Of a DNA stretch of 7,321 bases, positions 96 through 7,321 are shown one piece after another. Below the pieces are notes generated by a model, which saw nothing but the letters and a program-made list of their open reading frames with translations, was not told the origin of the DNA and made no database searches. Numbering within the stretch: the stretch's first letter is position 1; each line of letters opens with the position of its first letter. The stretch is taken from the NCBI GenBank assembly GCA_964373795.1, contig CAYJVY010000019.1, positions 1 through 7,321 of the forward strand, written 5' to 3'. The position numbers and the translations under genes were made by a program. The stretch is from an uncultured archaeon. Its GTDB lineage: Archaea > Iainarchaeota > Iainarchaeia > Iainarchaeales > DATDZZ01.

Positions 96-566
96 ATGGC
101 TTTCAAGTTTTTTGTTTTATTTGTATTTGTTTTATTGCTTCAAGGCTGTATTCAAGGCAATTCAATTAACTCTAAAACTGATTTGAATTCTTCTTTGAAT
201 GAATTTTGTTTTTCTAATCAGAAATGCATTCAAATTGAAACAGCTTTAACAGAGTCCGAGAGAATGAATGGATTAATGTTTCGTGAAACCTTGCCTGAAA
301 CTCAAGGAATGCTTTTTGTTTTTCCAGAATCAAAGGTTTATTCTTTTTGGATGAAAAATACTTTAATTCCTTTAGATTTGATTTGGATTAATGAATCAAA
401 AGAAATAATTGATTTAACTGAAAACTTTCAACCCTGCATTCAAGATCCTTGTCCTTCAAAATCTTCTTCCAAGCCAGTTAAATATGTTTTAGAAGTTAAT
501 GCAGGTTTTGTGGAAAACAATAAAATTAAAATAGGGGAAAAAGTGTTATTTGATTTAAGTGATTAA
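96..566 (+). CDS. DUF192 (COG1430-type) domain protein with an N-terminal signal peptide and a lipobox-like LLLQGC (Cys18, nt 147..149).
   Basis: The translation contains the DUF192 hallmark block GLMFRETLPETQGMLFVFPESKVYSFWMKNTLIPLDLIWINESKEIIDL ... KYVLEVNAGFVENNKIKIGEKV. The hydrophobic N-terminus MAFKFFVLFVFVLLLQGC is typical of an exported protein. Confidence 0.85.
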   Translation: MAFKFFVLFVFVLLLQGCIQGNSINSKTDLNSSLNEFCFSNQKCIQIETALTESERMNGLMFRETLPETQGMLFVFPESKVYSFWMKNTLIPLDLIWINESKEIIDLTENFQPCIQDPCPSKSSSKPVKYVLEVNAGFVENNKIKIGEKVLFDLSD

Positions 567-2432: not shown

Positions 2433-3179
2433 ATGCAGTTAACTGTTTTAGGCAGTGGATCAATTCATTCAAATTTAAATAGAAATCCAAGTGGTTACTT
2501 GCTTAAAGCTGGAAAAAATCTTGTTTTAATGGATTGTGGTCCAGGCATTAGAATTCAATTGCTTAAATTAAAAATTGATTTAAGAAAAATTAACTTGATT
2601 TTGCTTTCCCATTTTCATGTAGATCATTTTAATGATTTAATTGCATTGCTTTTTTCTTTTCAAGTTCCTGCTTGGGAGAACCAAAAAGTTAGAAAACCTT
2701 TAACTATTATTGGGCCTAGTGGAACAAAAAAACAACTTGCTTTAATTAAAAAATTAATGCATTTGACAAAATTTGATTTTCCATTAAAAGTAAAAGAATT
2801 GCATAACTCTTCAATGAACTTCAATGGATTGAAAATTGTTGCAAAGCCAATGAAGCATTTAGGCAATGCAAATGGTTATAGGTTTTCATTTAAAAACAAG
2901 GTTTTAACTTATTCGGGAGACACAACTTATTGCAATGAAATTATTTCTCTTGCAAAAAATGCTGATTTATTAATTTTAGAATGCGCTTCAATTAAAGAAC
3001 ATAAACTTCATTTAAATCCAATTCAATGTGGAGAAATTGCATTCAAATCTTCTCCTAAGAAATTGCTTTTAACTCATTTTTATCCAGTGATTGAAAAATT
3101 TAATATAAAAAAATTAGTTGAAAAAATCTTTAAAGGAAAGACTTTTGTTGCAAAAGATTTAATGAAATTCAGGTTTTGA
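2433..3179 (+). CDS. MBL-fold metallo-hydrolase, Lactamase_B_2 / RNase Z (ElaC)-like short form (248 aa).
   Basis: An ordered metallo-beta-lactamase motif set is present: LMDCGPG, HFHVDH (HxHxDH), KHLG (His), YSGDT (Asp), LLLTHF (His). The N-terminus MQLTVLGSGS is typical of the RNase Z/PhnP-like group. The exact substrate cannot be assigned. Confidence 0.8.
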   Translation: MQLTVLGSGSIHSNLNRNPSGYLLKAGKNLVLMDCGPGIRIQLLKLKIDLRKINLILLSHFHVDHFNDLIALLFSFQVPAWENQKVRKPLTIIGPSGTKKQLALIKKLMHLTKFDFPLKVKELHNSSMNFNGLKIVAKPMKHLGNANGYRFSFKNKVLTYSGDTTYCNEIISLAKNADLLILECASIKEHKLHLNPIQCGEIAFKSSPKKLLLTHFYPVIEKFNIKKLVEKIFKGKTFVAKDLMKFRF

Positions 3180-4622
3180 TTTTTTCTTTTTAGGCGTTTG
3201 TTCTTTAACTTGTTCTTTTTTTTCGGTTTTTTCTACTTCTTTTTTTTCCTTTAATTCACTTGCTTCAATGCTTTGTTTTGGTTTTGTTGCATTAGATATT
3301 TTTGCTCCAAGCCATTTAATGAAATCAAATACTCCCATGTCGTGTTTTAGTATTTTAGCGTTTGTAGTTAAAACTACTCCTGCTACAAGAATTATTGCTG
3401 ATTGAATTAATACATTCATTAACATTGTTCTAGAAATTTCTTGGAAAACTATTACTAGTTTTCCTCCTAGAATGTCTTGAAATCCGAAAAATTGTTCAAG
3501 CATTGAAGGCATTAAAATTAATCCTAGAGCAGTTGGAATGAAAGTTGAAAATCCTGCTGAAACAAATGCTCCTCCCACCCATTGAAATATTGCTTTAATT
3601 GAATGCAAATTTAATAAAACCATTAACAAAATAACCATGACTAAAAAAAGCAATAAATATCTTGAAATAAAGAAATATAATTTAATTAATTTTCTTGCTT
3701 CTTCTAAAATACTTAAAGCTACTGGGTCAATGAATGTCTTTAAATTAATTTTTTCAGGAATAGCAAATTCTTCTGCAACATTAGGGAAACTTAATTCATT
3801 GTTTTTAGGTAACCTTTTTGTTTGAAAAAAAGCAATTCCTTGTGTTTTTTCTTGAAGATTTCCTTTACATTTTGGAAGAGAAATTCCGCCTACAAGTCCT
3901 TCTAAGTCTTTTTCACTTACTCCTTCTGAAATGCATGCTCCTTCTTCACTAATTCCTTGAATTAAGTTGTTTAAATCTGAAGGTATTTCAAAGTCTTGTG
4001 GAATGTCTTTTGCAATTTTTTGTACAACGTTTTCAATTAATTCTTGTGTTTCTTTTTCAGAGCATTCAGGTAAATTTTTTGGAATTTCCACTCCTTCAAA
4101 TTGTTTTTCAAATTCTTTTGCATCAATTCCTTGTGGAATGCATTTAACTTCGCTTTTAATTAAATCATTTAATTCCATTTTAACTACTTCTTTAAGCAGG
4201 TTTTCAGGTTTAAGTGTTTCTTTTGCTTTTGAAGGAATTGCTACAGTTAAATCAATTTCATTAAATTCTTTTTCTGATTTCAGGTAAGCAAAGCTTTCCT
4301 TTAATAATTTAATTATTTCTTTTTTCATCCATTCTTTTGAAAAGGTTTCCAATATAAGTGGTTTAACTCCTTTAAGTAAAGCATTATTGCTTCCAAATCT
4401 ATCCATTGTTGAATCAATGCTTGAATGAATTTCTCCATACAAGTCATGTTTTTCAAATGCATCTAAGTAAATGTTTTCATTCAACAAGTTTTGAGCGTTA
4501 TTGAAATTAATTATTAAAGGATAACCTAAAGAGAAAGTCGCGAAAAGAAGGATTAAAGCCATGTATCTAACAAATTCAAATAACTTGAATATAATTCTTT
4601 TAACTATTTCAATTAAAGCCAT
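3159..4622 (-). CDS. Orphan integral membrane protein (487 aa). It has an N-terminal TM (about aa 21-39), an acidic extracytoplasmic domain of about 270 aa with two Cys-bracketed loops, a cluster of three C-terminal TMs (about aa 313-420) and a Lys/Glu-rich cytoplasmic tail.
   Basis: It is a long uninterrupted ORF. The hydrophobic segments are MALILLFATFSLGYPLIINF, YFFISRYLLLFLVMVILLMVLLNL, IFQWVGGAFVSAGFSTFIPTALGLILMP and LMNVLIQSAIILVAGVVLTT. The tail is KEKKEVEKTEKKEQVKEQTPKKKKSKPEFH. The basic N-terminus and tail fit the positive-inside rule for a 4-TM, N-in/C-in topology. I recognise no family. Confidence 0.75.
   Translation of the reverse strand: MALIEIVKRIIFKLFEFVRYMALILLFATFSLGYPLIINFNNAQNLLNENIYLDAFEKHDLYGEIHSSIDSTMDRFGSNNALLKGVKPLILETFSKEWMKKEIIKLLKESFAYLKSEKEFNEIDLTVAIPSKAKETLKPENLLKEVVKMELNDLIKSEVKCIPQGIDAKEFEKQFEGVEIPKNLPECSEKETQELIENVVQKIAKDIPQDFEIPSDLNNLIQGISEEGACISEGVSEKDLEGLVGGISLPKCKGNLQEKTQGIAFFQTKRLPKNNELSFPNVAEEFAIPEKINLKTFIDPVALSILEEARKLIKLYFFISRYLLLFLVMVILLMVLLNLHSIKAIFQWVGGAFVSAGFSTFIPTALGLILMPSMLEQFFGFQDILGGKLVIVFQEISRTMLMNVLIQSAIILVAGVVLTTNAKILKHDMGVFDFIKWLGAKISNATKPKQSIEASELKEKKEVEKTEKKEQVKEQTPKKKKSKPEFH
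3180..3191 (+). terminator. T6-C-T5 tract directly after the MBL stop codon. Candidate oligo-T terminator, formed by the antisense of the Lys codons in the convergent gene's poly-Lys tail.
   Basis: The sequence is TGATTTTTTCTTTTTAGG. The MBL gene and the membrane-protein gene overlap by 21 nt, so any terminator must lie inside coding sequence. Confidence 0.25.
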
Positions 4623-4643
4623 TTAATCAACTGCATGCAATAC

Positions 4644-4652
4644 ATTAAATTA
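4644..4652 (-). promoter_or_regulatory. TATA-like box (minus strand TAATTTAAT) centred about 26 nt upstream of the membrane-protein ATG at 4622.
   Basis: The position matches the other candidate boxes, and no SD-like purine run lies upstream of the start. In AT-rich DNA this is weak evidence on its own. Confidence 0.25.
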
Positions 4653-4734
4653 TTCTAGTTTAAATCTTTTTGCTTTTCGTTTAAAAATCAACCTAATTTG
4701 TTAGTAGTTTCTAGATTTAATTCTTGTCAACATA

Positions 4735-4742
4735 TTTAAATA
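4735..4742 (+). promoter_or_regulatory. TTTAAATA, matching the archaeal TATA-box consensus (TTTAWATA). It is centred about 27 nt upstream of the ATG at 4766 and is the candidate promoter of a leaderless surface-protein transcript.
   Basis: It is an exact consensus-type octamer. Its distance to the start codon equals the typical TATA-to-TSS distance. There is no SD in the intervening TAAGTTTAGCATTATTTTTTACA. Confidence 0.45.
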
Positions 4743-4765
4743 TAAGTTTAGCATTATTTTTTACA

Positions 4766-4822
4766 ATGTTTAAAAAATTATTAATTGCTTTTCTAGTGTT
4801 AACAATTTTGTTAGCTGGTTGT
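4766..4822 (+). other. Signal peptide with a canonical lipobox L-A-G-C (Cys19).
   Basis: The sequence is MFKK (basic n-region), LLIAFLVLTILL (h-region) and AGC, which fits [LVI][ASTVI][GAS]C. Confidence 0.7.
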
Positions 4823-7321
4823 ACTTCTGGACAAATAAAAGTTTTGAAAGATTTAGGATTAAGTGATGAACAAATAAACACACTTAACTCATTGTCTTCA
4901 AGTGAAGATTCTGGAAGCGGAGTAATTGATCACACTAATGCTTCTACTGTTGTTCAATTTATTGAAAAAGCTTTTCCTAGTTTACCATTAGATAAAGAAA
5001 TTCAATTAATTGTAATTGATTTAACTGAAAATACCTTTCAAATATCAAATTATACTCCTGGTCAAGCAGTTCCAGAAGAAGAAATTTTTAGAAAAAAACC
5101 TGTAGCTGATGGATTTGTATTAAATCCTGGAGCAGATGTATTTGTTGCAGTTAAAGATCCTTCAAAGCCAAATACAACTGTTGATGTTTTAATTGGAGAA
5201 ACCAAAATTCCAGTTAAACTTAACAGAACAGGAGTAGGAGTTGTTTACGTTCCATATAGTACTGTTACTAGTCTTCCTAAAGATGAGCAAGTTAAACTTT
5301 CTTGGACTGCTCGAGATCCAGAAAACCCAAATAAACCTTTAAGTGGTTCTACTTTAGTTACTTTCACTTCTCCTCGAACTAATTCAAATGTTCCAGGTAA
5401 AGATATAGAAGTAAAAAATTTACAAACTACTTTAACTTTAGCTTATCCTAATGTGATTCCCAATACTGATAGATATCTTTTAACAAAATTTGTAGTTGCT
5501 AGTGATGATGAAAAAGAATCTGGTTGTGCTTTTCCACCTACTGACTTAAAACCAGGATACACCAAAACTTATGTAATTAAAGCAGATATTTTAACTAATC
5601 CAACTAATACAACAGCTTCACTAGGTTTCGATAGTAGTGGAAATACTGTTAATGTTGGAAGTGTAACTGTTAATTCTGCTAGTAAAGTTCTTAGTAATTT
5701 TAAATTAAAGGCAGGAGCAAATGATGATGTTCTTGTTAGATCATTTAAAGTTACTTATAAGGATTCTCCTACTTGTGAAATTTATTTTGGGCATGGCACT
5801 GAAGTTAAAGTTCCAGCCGGGACAACAAAAACATTTAGTCTTAAAGCAGATGTTGATGTAATTTATTCCTCAACTTATACTCGTCAACCAGAACCTGAAC
5901 CCACTTCCACTGTTTCAAGCAATACATTAACTATTACTAATCCAACAAGTGGTTTTGCTGTTGCAGATAATACTATGAATAAGTTTGCTAATATTCGTCT
6001 TTTATTGCCTGGTGGAACTGAAGTAGGTTGTGTAGGATATCCAGGGCAGTCAATGAATCCTAATTCAAGTTCTGTTATAGGTTTTGTTATTACTGGAAGT
6101 GATATAAAAAATGCTGTAAGAGTTGAAAGAAGTTTTGAAGATGTTTCTACTAAGACTAGTGGTGGTGAGAATGTTTCTCTTGCAAAATGGAATTTTACTG
6201 CTTTGAGTACTAATAATGATGTTAAAGTAACTAGTCTAAAAGTAAAGATTAATGGAGTGGACACTTGTTCCTCTGAGTTTCCCCCATTTAAAGTTGCTCC
6301 AGGCGAGTCTAAAATTATTACTTTAGTGGCAGACTTAAGTACAGTAAGTTGTGAAGCTGCTTGCATTGATTGGAGTGCTTGCTCTAACGGCATTCAAACC
6401 CGTACTTGTGGAGTGGTTCCAGTTTCTTGTCCTCAACCCGAAACATCTCGTTCATGCACTGATGCAGTTACTAGTGCTCCTGGACAAATAACTATAACTC
6501 CTGTGGGGCCAACTGGTAATACTCTTGCAAAGTTTGACGTTAAAGCAGGAGGATCTGATTTCACATTAACTTCAATAAAGATTAATGGAGTAGGCATTAA
6601 AGATAAAACTCCTTTTGATGTTTCAATGCAAAATGCATTAGTATCTTTATGGAATGGAAATGTGGAGGCAGCTGACTGTTCTTCAAGTGATTTATGTAGG
6701 ATTAACTTTACTGGAGACTTAGCTACTATTCCTAAAAACAGTTCAGTAACTCTTACAGTTAAAGGAGATTTTATTAAACCGCCTGTAACATCTGGTCCAT
6801 ATGTAGTATTTGATTCATCTACTCCTACTGATTCAACTTCTGCTTGTGTTCCTAATTGGGTTGCAGATCTTACAACTCTTAGTCCTTGGAGTGGGTGGAG
6901 TCCTGAATGGCCCGCTTGTGCTGGAGGAGATCAAACAAGCACTGCAACAGTTACAATGAAGGAAACTAAGTGCGGTAATCCTCCAAAAGTTGACACAGTT
7001 TCTAGGTCAAGGCATTGTAAAGATAAAAAAAGTGGTTCACAGAAATGGATTAGCTTAGGAGACAATGAAAAACAATCAACTACCTACGCTTCAGCAATTG
7101 ATACTGAGAGTGGAACTGTTGTTGCAGCCCCTCCATTGAATGGAATTCCAGTTTACACTATTAGTTTTTCTGATGTGTTTTTTGCTGCTACTGCTAAGGG
7201 TTCTAGTAGTACTCCTGATAAGAGGTTTTATCATGAAGTTGATTTGTCAACAATGCCTAGTGGAATATTTTTGTGGTGGATTAAGGATATTCCAATGCCT
7301 CCGGAGAAAAATATATCTATT
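4766..7321 (+). CDS. Large secreted or lipid-anchored cell-surface protein, 5' part only (852 codons, open to the window edge). It is Thr/Ser/Asn/Val/Gly-rich and built from repeated beta-modules plus TSR-like Cys/Trp modules.
   Basis: I translated it by hand and found no stop from ATG 4766 to 7321, which is exactly 852 codons. An in-frame TAA lies at 4718..4720 just upstream. The N-terminus MFKKLLIAFLVLTILLAGC is a classic signal peptide with a lipobox. Amino-acid usage is coherent along the whole length. The track omits it, presumably because no stop lies within the window. The antisense ORF 5884..6393 lies entirely inside it. Confidence 0.85.
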   Translation, partial: MFKKLLIAFLVLTILLAGCTSGQIKVLKDLGLSDEQINTLNSLSSSEDSGSGVIDHTNASTVVQFIEKAFPSLPLDKEIQLIVIDLTENTFQISNYTPGQAVPEEEIFRKKPVADGFVLNPGADVFVAVKDPSKPNTTVDVLIGETKIPVKLNRTGVGVVYVPYSTVTSLPKDEQVKLSWTARDPENPNKPLSGSTLVTFTSPRTNSNVPGKDIEVKNLQTTLTLAYPNVIPNTDRYLLTKFVVASDDEKESGCAFPPTDLKPGYTKTYVIKADILTNPTNTTASLGFDSSGNTVNVGSVTVNSASKVLSNFKLKAGANDDVLVRSFKVTYKDSPTCEIYFGHGTEVKVPAGTTKTFSLKADVDVIYSSTYTRQPEPEPTSTVSSNTLTITNPTSGFAVADNTMNKFANIRLLLPGGTEVGCVGYPGQSMNPNSSSVIGFVITGSDIKNAVRVERSFEDVSTKTSGGENVSLAKWNFTALSTNNDVKVTSLKVKINGVDTCSSEFPPFKVAPGESKIITLVADLSTVSCEAACIDWSACSNGIQTRTCGVVPVSCPQPETSRSCTDAVTSAPGQITITPVGPTGNTLAKFDVKAGGSDFTLTSIKINGVGIKDKTPFDVSMQNALVSLWNGNVEAADCSSSDLCRINFTGDLATIPKNSSVTLTVKGDFIKPPVTSGPYVVFDSSTPTDSTSACVPNWVADLTTLSPWSGWSPEWPACAGGDQTSTATVTMKETKCGNPPKVDTVSRSRHCKDKKSGSQKWISLGDNEKQSTTYASAIDTESGTVVAAPPLNGIPVYTISFSDVFFAATAKGSSSTPDKRFYHEVDLSTMPSGIFLWWIKDIPMPPEKNISI
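5678..5860 (+). repeat. Protein-level module R1: ASKVLSNFKLKAGANDDVLVRSFKVTYKDSPTCEIYFGHGTEVKVPAGTTKTFSLKADVDV.
   Basis: It shares with R2 and R3 the pattern L-x-K/N-F/W-x-h-x-A-x-x-x-D/N-h-x-h-x-S-h-K-h ... C ... P-(A/G)-G-x-x-K-x-h-x-L-x-A-D. A shorter, weaker copy (R0) lies at 5468..5593: DRYLLTKFVVASDDEKESGCAFPPTDLKPGYTKTYVIKADIL. Confidence 0.5.
6170..6346 (+). repeat. Protein-level module R2: NVSLAKWNFTALSTNNDVKVTSLKVKINGVDTCSSEFPPFKVAPGESKIITLVADLSTV.
   Basis: It follows the same pattern as R1. It also contains the 16-nt string TAAAGATTAATGGAGT (6243..6258), which recurs exactly and in the same frame in R3 (6576..6591). Confidence 0.55.
6350..6457 (+). other. Cys-rich module 1 (6 Cys, 36 aa): CEAACIDWSACSNGIQTRTCGVVPVSCPQPETSRSC. 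Thrombospondin type-1 repeat (TSR)-like.
   Basis: The core WSxCSxxGxQTRTC parallels the TSR consensus WSxCSxTCGxGxQxRxRxC. It has six cysteines and a trailing R-x-C. Confidence 0.5.
6515..6775 (+). repeat. Protein-level module R3: GNTLAKFDVKAGGSDFTLTSIKINGVGIKDKTPFDV...CSSSDLCRINFTGDLATIPKNSSVTLTVKGDFI. This is a longer variant with an insertion.
   Basis: LAKFDVKAGGSDFTLTSIKINGV aligns with LAKWNFTALSTNNDVKVTSLKVKINGV of R2. The ending ...SSVTLTVKGDF parallels ...KTFSLKADV and ...KIITLVADL. Confidence 0.5.
6845..7018 (+). other. Cys/Trp module 2 (4 Cys, 58 aa): CVPNWVADLTTLSPWSGWSPEWPACAGGDQTSTATVTMKETKCGNPPKVDTVSRSRHC. TSR-like tryptophan ladder.
   Basis: W-S-G-W-S-P-E-W (6887..6910), followed by C-x-G-G-x-Q-T and a distal S-R-S-R-x-C, mimics the WxxWxxW...C...GxGxQ...RxR layout of TSRs. 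Confidence 0.45.

Follow-up and report, generated by a model that had tools for sequence, protein, structure and literature searches.

What is encoded between position 4766 and the last base of contig CAYJVY010000019.1, a region in which a list of open reading frames (ORFs) records only one antisense ORF of 169 codons? The window that we analyzed is the entire contig, 7321 bases long. A reading made from its letters alone (the sequence-only reading) had proposed that the largest gene of the contig lies here on the forward strand, that it encodes a surface lipoprotein, and that it runs off the 3′ edge. We find that 4766..7321 is a real gene, complete at its 5′ end and cut at its 3′ end by the end of the contig. 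On balance, we favor the view that its product is a lipid-anchored, modular surface binding protein of an uncultivated, AT-rich bacterium.

Translation from the ATG at 4766 gives 852 sense codons with no stop up to the last base of the window, exactly as had been read by hand, and each of the other five frames across the same region contains 21 to 125 stops. The chance of 852 stop-free codons, estimated from the local base composition, is ~5e-29. Similarly, codon log-likelihoods trained on the neighboring genes are best for the sense frame over the entire region, with a score of 243 versus 113 for the best alternative, which is the antisense frame. An in-frame stop lies upstream at 4718-4720, and the first ATG after it is the one at 4766; an in-frame TTG at 4724 was considered as an alternative start and rejected (14 additional residues, not signal-like). 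The sequence-only reading had stressed that the gene is missing from the ORF list. It is indeed missing, but this has no biological meaning, because the list by its own rule leaves out ORFs that run off an end. The description of the protein as giant, a term for products of several thousand residues in episymbiont genomes, is unproven, as the known sequence ends with the contig after 852 residues. Logan contigs that encode the neighboring genes exactly are only 1.8-2.4 kb long (accessions ERR3478686 and ERR4904391) and none extends into the large gene, and GTDB genomes contain no exact match to a 43-mer taken from the end of the contig. Scans of the window for Rfam families, tRNAs and tandem repeats found nothing relevant.

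The antisense ORF at 5884..6393 behaves as a shadow of the large gene, which is how the sequence-only reading had explained it. Its third codon position coincides with that of the sense frame, and the comparison of codon-position composition that had been proposed to separate the two frames is not discriminating at the third position: GC contents at the first, second and third codon positions (GC1/2/3) over 5884..6393 are 0.49/0.42/0.165 for the antisense frame and 0.43/0.49/0.166 for the sense frame. Within this interval, the neighbor-trained codon score slightly favors the antisense frame (43.0 versus 32.9), while over the whole region it favors the sense frame. Because the wobble positions coincide, local codon statistics cannot separate sense from antisense, and scores of this kind are expected of a shadow. 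The sense frame is preferred because of the stop counts (0 versus 21 across the region), the whole-region score, the signal peptide, the internal repeats and the external homology; the last of these (residues 523-562, nt 6332-6451) overlaps the antisense ORF and thus supports the sense frame directly. The 169-residue antisense product matches no Pfam family.

The features of the region, with residue numbers referring to the large protein, are as follows.

4766..7321, + strand: coding sequence (CDS) of a predicted lipoprotein precursor of at least 852 residues; 5′ complete, 3′ end cut by the contig end.
4766..4822, + strand: predicted signal peptide and lipobox MFKKLLIAFLVLTILLAGC, residues 1-19; fits the lipobox pattern, with no other hydrophobic window in the protein.
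4823..4930, + strand: Ser/Asp/Gly-rich segment TSGQIKVLKDLGLSDEQINTLNSLSSSEDSGSGVID, residues 20-55, evident in the sequence; putative tether.
4931..5380, + strand: N-terminal region, residues 56-205; no detectable family (no Pfam match at E≤10).
5399..5602, + strand: predicted beta-rich repeat, copy A, residues 212-279; leave-one-out hidden Markov model (HMM) score 7.4, shuffle maximum 6.6, reached by 0 of 500 shuffles.
5651..5869, + strand: predicted beta-rich repeat, copy B, residues 296-368; leave-one-out HMM score 20.8, shuffle maximum 9.5, 0 of 500.
5885..5911, + strand: Pro/Thr linker QPEPEPTST, residues 374-382, evident in the sequence.
5884..6393, − strand: shadow ORF of 169 residues, not a gene; antisense frame with aligned wobble positions and 21 stops across the region.
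6137..6346, + strand: predicted beta-rich repeat, copy C, residues 458-527; leave-one-out HMM score 18.3, shuffle maximum 14.4, 0 of 500.
6350..6457, + strand: Cys/Trp module 1, Cys529-Cys564, six Cys, CEAACIDWSACSNGIQTRTCGVVPVSCPQPETSRSC; resembles thrombospondin type-1 repeats (TSRs) and midkine, and holds the only database match of the protein.
6485..6781, + strand: predicted beta-rich repeat, copy D, residues 574-672, with an insertion of ~30 residues; leave-one-out HMM score 8.3, reached by 2 of 500 shuffles.
6845..7018, + strand: Cys/Trp module 2, Cys694-Cys751, four Cys; TSR-like, with the motif W708-S-G-W711-S-P-E-W715-P-A-C718.
7028..7321, + strand: last visible region, residues 755-852; no family (no Pfam match at E≤10), cut by the contig end.

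The N-terminus of the large protein reads M-F-K-K, then LLIAFLVLTILL, then L-A-G-C19, which gives a KK n-region and a hydrophobic core of 12 residues ahead of the L-A-G-C lipobox. Under a definition of the PROSITE PS51257 type (a positive n-region, an h-region of 7-22 residues and [LVI][ASTVI][GAS]C within the first ~35 residues), this is a lipoprotein signal, and the lipobox regular expression matches; the textbook signal peptide and lipobox seen by the sequence-only reading are therefore present. The signal is the sole hydrophobic segment within the 852 residues, and Cys19 (4820-4822) is predicted to carry the lipid and to begin the mature protein. A match to PHROG 902 covers residues 3-49 only, that is, the signal-peptide region.

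The composition of the large protein is that of an extracellular protein. Compared to its five neighbors, the protein is rich in Thr (11.0 versus 3.9%), Ser (10.9 versus 6.6%), Val (9.6 versus 5.1%) and Pro (7.0 versus 3.6%), and poor in Lys (6.9 versus 12.0%), Glu and Ile. The earlier description of the composition thus holds for Thr, Ser, Val and Lys, but not for Asn, which is not enriched (5.6% in the large protein and 5.5% in the neighbors). The same reading had counted about 11 N-x-S/T sequons by eye, and there are exactly 11, but this number does not mark the protein as glycosylated. Shuffles of the same protein give 9.7 ± 2.75 sequons (P = 0.38); with a count that chance explains and no enrichment of Asn, the sequence carries no sign of glycosylation.

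The gene is native to its genome rather than recently imported. GC climbs from 0.29 to 0.40 along it, while its GC3 is 0.137, compared with 0.16-0.21 in the neighbors; since GC3 is low, the raised GC is due to amino-acid composition and not to foreign origin. Along the gene GC1 is flat and GC2 rises from 0.385 to 0.535. GC3 by quarter is 0.085 and 0.089, then 0.178 and 0.197, a two-fold step near codon 427 that could reflect either a mosaic ancestry of the two halves or different selection on them.

Beyond the signal, the visible protein is built from repeats and small Cys-rich modules. The four repeats (A to D), of ~70-100 residues, share a strand ...L-[AS]-K-F-x-[VL]-x-A..., a strand D-V-x-V-x-S-[FL]-K-V, a conserved Cys and a closing motif P-x-G-x-[ST]-K-x-x-x-[LV]-x-A-D; copies B and C align to each other in pairwise local alignment with a score of 64-67. 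Linkers between the modules are rich in Pro, Thr and Ser, and include the QPEPEPTST segment picked out by the sequence-only reading. A beta-sandwich fold of the repeats is a reasonable guess. Searched singly against Pfam and NCBIfam, the repeats match no Big, Ig-like, FN3, cadherin or other named repeat family, even at E≤10, and neither a named family nor a confident fold places the protein among the Big, FN3 or cadherin repeat adhesins. A phage tail protein that appeared as a relative of the repeat profile in the PDB was marginal (E = 0.23) and was rejected as noise. For residues 56-205, AlphaFold2 (AF2) predicts one helix and strands with a pLDDT of 50-60, which is too low to use. Of the 16 Cys that follow the lipobox Cys, ten lie within the two compact Cys/Trp modules, each of which follows a repeat. 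The earlier statement that no characterised family is recognizable over most of the length is thus correct overall, but the protein is not wholly unrecognizable, given the four repeats and the two TSR-like Cys modules.

The large protein is close to an orphan at the level of sequence. Searches of the whole protein against Pfam, NCBIfam and PDB sequences gave nothing above noise, and a word-indexed search of 5.8 billion proteins found no homologue of the protein and none for an alignment of the modules. It has no relative in JGI metagenomes and no match in 2.9 million viral contigs. When all 1.84 billion representative proteins were searched exhaustively with HMMER, a single match came back (E = 4.7e-5), which covers the 40 residues 523-562 in the first Cys/Trp module. 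The matching protein, P0001, is a 749-residue secreted protein from JGI sample 3300075153, encoded on a contig of 6454 bases. It contains nine tandem copies of the Cys/Trp module, with the consensus CxYxYSDWSACxSGIQTRTxTxTPxGC...QTC, together with a Big_13 domain and a membrane anchor at the C-terminus; a bacterial TSP3 repeat scores 21.6 bits in it, under the cut-off of 25. P0001 and the large protein share the module (41% identity over residues 523-562), and both appear to be secreted, anchored and modular. They differ in that P0001 carries nine tandem modules, Big_13 and the sub-threshold TSP3 repeat, a cleavable signal that is not of the lipoprotein type and a C-terminal transmembrane anchor, and has none of the beta-rich repeats. 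The layout of P0001 is itself a surface-protein architecture, which fits the reading of the large protein as a binding protein. Some P0001 copies have an extra Cys pair (CANQC...RTC), as in module 1 of the large protein, and the P0001 gene overlaps a HisKA/HATPase histidine kinase gene that follows it directly.

If the modules belong to a known fold, the best candidates are the TSRs (Pfam TSP_1, PF00090, and TSP1_spondin, PF19028) and the heparin-binding half-domains of midkine and pleiotrophin (PTN_MK_C, PF01091), whose fold is TSR-like. Like TSRs, the modules are small (40-60 residues), disulfide-rich and extracellular, as predicted from their sequences. Module 1 contains W-S-A-C-S-N-G-I-Q-T-R-T-C, which is near the canonical WSxCSxxCGxGxQxRxRxC, and module 2 contains W-S-G-W-S-P-E-W-P-A-C. 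TSRs have six Cys in three disulfides over ~50-60 residues; module 1 also has six Cys, in 36 residues, while module 2 has four in 58. Unlike TSRs, both modules fall under the Pfam thresholds, both lack the RxR of the strand that follows, their CSxxCG turn is shorter, and the context is prokaryotic. The Trp-Arg ladder differs as well: TSRs pair WxxWxxW with RxR(xR) on the next strand (the Cys-Trp-Arg layers), whereas module 2 has W708-x-x-W711-x-x-x-W715 with no Arg on the strand after it, and module 1 has W536 as its sole Trp and one Arg, within TRT.

Profile comparisons point in the same direction at modest strength. Module 2 alone matches TSP1_spondin with E = 0.0086 and 16.8 bits (cut-off 41; profile positions 3-49 of 52), module 1 has no match at all, and neither module reaches a TSR gathering threshold. 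The large protein has no match to PTN_MK_C, and its homologue P0001 matches that family below threshold (E = 0.0085, 16.8 bits, cut-off 25.3) and the TSR of MIC2 in the PDB at E = 0.2. A profile made from the nine P0001 copies alone scores 23.2 bits on module 1 and 0.8 bits on module 2, and the module profile picks up pleiotrophin and midkine among PDB sequences (E = 0.065-0.074). For comparison of alignments with hhalign, the reference set consisted of canonical TSR and pleiotrophin/midkine (PTN/MK) sequences verified by Pfam at 40-81 bits. The module alignment matches this combined set with a probability of 74.9% and a score of 25.2, a score that none of 200 column shuffles reached (median 8.2, maximum 21.1); the reversed profile scores 11.8. 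Against the canonical TSRs alone, module 1 scores 23.4 (61.5%) and module 2 scores 24.4 (63%), both of which exceed all 200 shuffles of the combined comparison. The P0001 repeat, CxYxYSDWSACxSGIKTRT...C...C, aligns with pleiotrophin, including the spacing of four Cys, with an hhalign probability of 83.6%, whereas the modules of the large protein alone match PTN/MK poorly (scores of 12.4 and 16.3). An AF2 model of module 1 (41 residues, 11-sequence alignment) has a pLDDT of 88.7, and Foldseek with this model gives no significant match (E-values of 2 or worse); the highest-ranked chains come from complement C8 and the sMAC, whose components contain TSRs, with TSR3-4 of Sema5A at rank 11. Taken together, these comparisons suggest that both modules probably adopt a divergent TSR/midkine-like fold, short of demonstrated membership in either family. 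We are more doubtful of the stronger proposal that the modules and the P0001 array are true prokaryotic homologues of TSRs and midkine, with which a possibly episymbiotic bacterium would bind glycans or proteins of a partner cell by means of a lipid-anchored stalk.

How would such a protein work? The precursor would be exported by Sec; Lgt would add diacylglycerol to Cys19, and signal peptidase II would cleave before it, so that the mature protein would hang by its lipidated N-terminus from the outer face of the membrane. The flexible tether (residues 20-55) would be followed by a chain of independently folded, disulfide-stabilized modules projecting from the membrane: the 150-residue region, then the four private beta-rich repeats with their Pro/Thr/Ser linkers and the two Cys/Trp knots. 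Binding is its most likely function: the protein would act as a stalk-like adhesin or a ligand-capture protein that presents the Cys/Trp modules and the unseen C-terminus to a partner cell, a glycan or a matrix, and a glycan or protein ligand would be bound by the TSR-like modules or by that C-terminus. It resembles bacterial modular surface lipoproteins and adhesins (the Big-domain adhesins, and the lipid-anchored proteins of monoderms and Mollicutes) in its N-terminal lipobox anchor, flexible tether, tandem repeats predicted to be beta-rich, Pro/Thr/Ser linkers, extracellular composition and rapid divergence. It differs from them in that its repeat is private and belongs to no named family, with no relatives among the 1.84 billion representatives.

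Several observations weigh against this interpretation. No function-bearing family of Pfam, NCBIfam or the PDB is matched at its curated threshold anywhere in the protein, and neither an orthologue (in JGI metagenomes) nor a conserved neighborhood (on contigs carrying relatives of a neighboring gene, the MBL hydrolase gene) was found. The TSR likeness is made up of several signals that are individually sub-threshold, in short sequences biased toward Cys and Trp, with Foldseek E-values no better than 2 and a full canonical Trp-Arg ladder in neither module. The structure prediction for the full length failed (the AF2 single-sequence model is almost all strand at a pLDDT of 39.5, and unusable), which leaves the beta-sandwich nature of the repeats unproven, and the four-repeat profile finds nothing significant in the PDB. 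The 7.3-kb contig is too short to check for Lgt and LspA, and the C-terminus, which may carry the functional domain, lies beyond its end.

The competing explanations, in descending likelihood, are a surface-tethered enzyme, a structural envelope protein, an archaeal glycoprotein, a phage tail protein and an antisense gene. The visible 852 residues could be the anchoring and carbohydrate- or substrate-binding part of a tethered enzyme, such as a glycoside hydrolase, a protease or a nuclease, with its catalytic domain beyond the contig. Secreted bacterial enzymes often have repeats, linkers and small binding modules ahead of the catalytic domain, and a truncated gene in a window that is the whole contig leaves room for such a domain, no catalytic family being present in the visible part. 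We consider this explanation unlikely, as a catalytic domain has no positive evidence and P0001, the homologue of the module, is without an enzyme domain.

A structural role in the envelope, as a scaffold that is S-layer-like or spans the cell wall and not as an adhesin that binds a ligand, would also explain a lipid anchor and repeated beta-rich modules, and a Thr/Ser/Val-rich, Lys-poor composition is typical of surface-layer proteins. The protein has no match to SLH, S-layer or cell-wall-binding families in Pfam or NCBIfam. Moreover, TSR/midkine-like modules are binding modules and, to our knowledge, bind wherever they have been characterized. Core envelope scaffolds are usually conserved within a lineage, but the large gene has no conserved orthologues. 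These points make a scaffold a rather improbable explanation.

The third explanation concerns the organism as much as the protein. The sequence-only reading had placed the gene in the setting of reduced-genome episymbionts such as DPANN archaea, and if the contig came from a DPANN archaeon, the protein could be an N-glycosylated archaeal surface protein with an archaeal-type lipobox. The neighboring genes encode a DUF192 protein, YggS, Tgt, an RNase Z/BN-like MBL hydrolase and a 487-residue membrane protein. YggS passes the TIGR00044 cut-off of 106 bits with 196, and Tgt passes that of TIGR00430, the model for the bacterial queuine type, with 402.8 bits against 306.75; Tgt fails the archaeal TgtA model (156 bits, cut-off 350). 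All 20 Tgt relatives retrieved from a genome set comprising both bacteria and archaea (GTDB) are bacterial; the best is 43% identical, and the best relatives are scattered over Proteobacteria, Patescibacteria, Clostridia and others. The relatives of the MBL hydrolase have at most 50% identity, and the contigs that carry them share no gene order with the window. The closest named one is from a Woesearchaeota metagenome-assembled genome (39%), which would suit an archaeon, but a relative with 40% identity adjoins LepA, a bacterial gene. YggS, the MBL hydrolase and the 487-residue protein form singleton clusters.

Signals near the start codons can be read either way. Shine-Dalgarno motifs precede none of the contig's six genes, and A/T boxes (ATTAAAAT, TTTAAAT, TAATTTAA and TTTAAATA) lie at −31..−23 from the starts at 96, 2369 (−), 4622 (−) and 4766 (for the last of these, at 4735-4742). 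This is the spacing of archaeal TATA boxes with leaderless mRNAs; the boxes may equally be bacterial −10 elements with a leader of ~15-20 nt, and in spacers of ~25% GC they may arise by chance. The expectation for an N-glycosylated archaeal S-layer glycoprotein, an archaeal context and enriched sequons, contrasts with what we find, a bacterial Tgt equivalog and sequons at the level of the shuffles. From the Tgt equivalog, YggS and the bacterial-type lipobox, we conclude that the host is a bacterium. It is uncultivated and very AT-rich, reads the standard code and has no close sequenced relative. A DPANN origin, and with it the archaeal glycoprotein, is improbable. Membership of the host (28% GC) in the candidate phyla radiation (CPR) is plausible.

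A prophage-derived tail fiber or receptor-binding protein is very improbable: repeat B has sub-threshold matches to Phage_tube_C (E = 0.008-0.034) and to a baseplate hub domain (E = 0.14), which stand beside the marginal PDB match of the repeat profile, but all of these are far below threshold, a lipoprotein signal is unfit for a virion protein, the neighbors are housekeeping genes, viral contigs gave no match, and the PHROG match is confined to the signal peptide. Finally, that the antisense ORF is the real gene and the long frame is not expressed as one protein has, despite its slightly higher local codon score, a negligible likelihood, given its stops, its product without a family and the signal peptide, repeats and homology of the sense frame.

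The genes around the large gene have features of their own. The divergent neighbor is as follows.

3159..4622, − strand: gene of the 487-residue orphan membrane protein, which shares the 143-base AT-rich intergenic region 4623-4765 with the large gene.

Its product has hydrophobic segments at approximately residues 10-40 and 311-420 (about three of them C-terminal), a Lys/Glu-rich region of ~270 residues with paired Cys, and a Lys-rich tail; it matches no Pfam family and has no relative in JGI metagenomes. The DUF192 protein, encoded at 96-566 (+), has a lipoprotein-like N-terminus, MAFKFFVLFVFVLLLQGC, with an L-Q-G-C box that is permitted by the PROSITE lipobox rule, and a weak ‘mostly_LP’ match in NCBIfam over residues 4-44. 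The contig may therefore encode two lipoproteins, this one and the large protein, and the second lipobox-like signal would be indirect support for Lgt and signal peptidase II in this genome.

The genes are tightly packed: DUF192 and YggS, which starts with GTG, overlap by 8 bases (559-566), and convergent overlaps join YggS to Tgt (4 bases, 1257-1260) and the MBL gene to the 487-residue protein gene at their 3′ ends (21 bases, 3159-3179). Tandem Repeats Finder identifies an imperfect direct repeat at 2360-2416, with a 26-base unit, 2.3 copies, 78% matches and a palindromic core resembling GCATTTAAATGC. This repeat spans the 63-base divergent promoter region between Tgt and MBL, and could be a shared operator or promoter element. 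The MBL protein is encoded exactly on two Logan contigs of ERR3478686 (L001 and L002, which contain the 487-residue protein in full as well) and one of ERR4904391 (L003, which cuts that protein at 443 residues). These are two independent sequencing runs, so that the organism recurs in at least two samples. The ERR3478686 contig ends one base past the start codon of the gene for the 487-residue protein, at the border of the AT-rich spacer that separates it from the large gene, which hints at an assembly-breaking feature such as variation or low complexity.

For annotation, these results mean that the contig's largest gene is genuine and belongs in the annotation as a partial CDS, that the antisense ORF should be dropped, and that the arguments from glycosylation and from a DPANN origin should not be carried forward for this gene. 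The gene is of an ordinary kind, a modular surface lipoprotein, with a sequence that is unusually isolated.

The TSP1 domain is treated as an adhesion domain of animals and apicomplexans (PMC3417536). Bacterial TSP3 repeats are known in the literature and are distinct from TSP1. Scattered bacterial TSP1 matches are already listed in domain databases, and we therefore claim no first instance. If the likeness of the modules reflects true homology, they would represent a bacterial TSR-like family not described before, and would point either to a bacterial origin of this hallmark eukaryotic adhesion domain or to its independent transfer. A classic extracellular adhesion fold of eukaryotes would then reach into uncultivated bacteria, and binding of a glycan or a heparin-like ligand would become a testable hypothesis for an otherwise opaque protein. 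Lipid-anchored modular surface proteins are the expected site of attachment functions in uncultivated bacteria with small genomes; the large protein is a clean example of one with practically no relatives among 1.84 billion representative sequences, and may play a part in the interaction between an episymbiont and its host.

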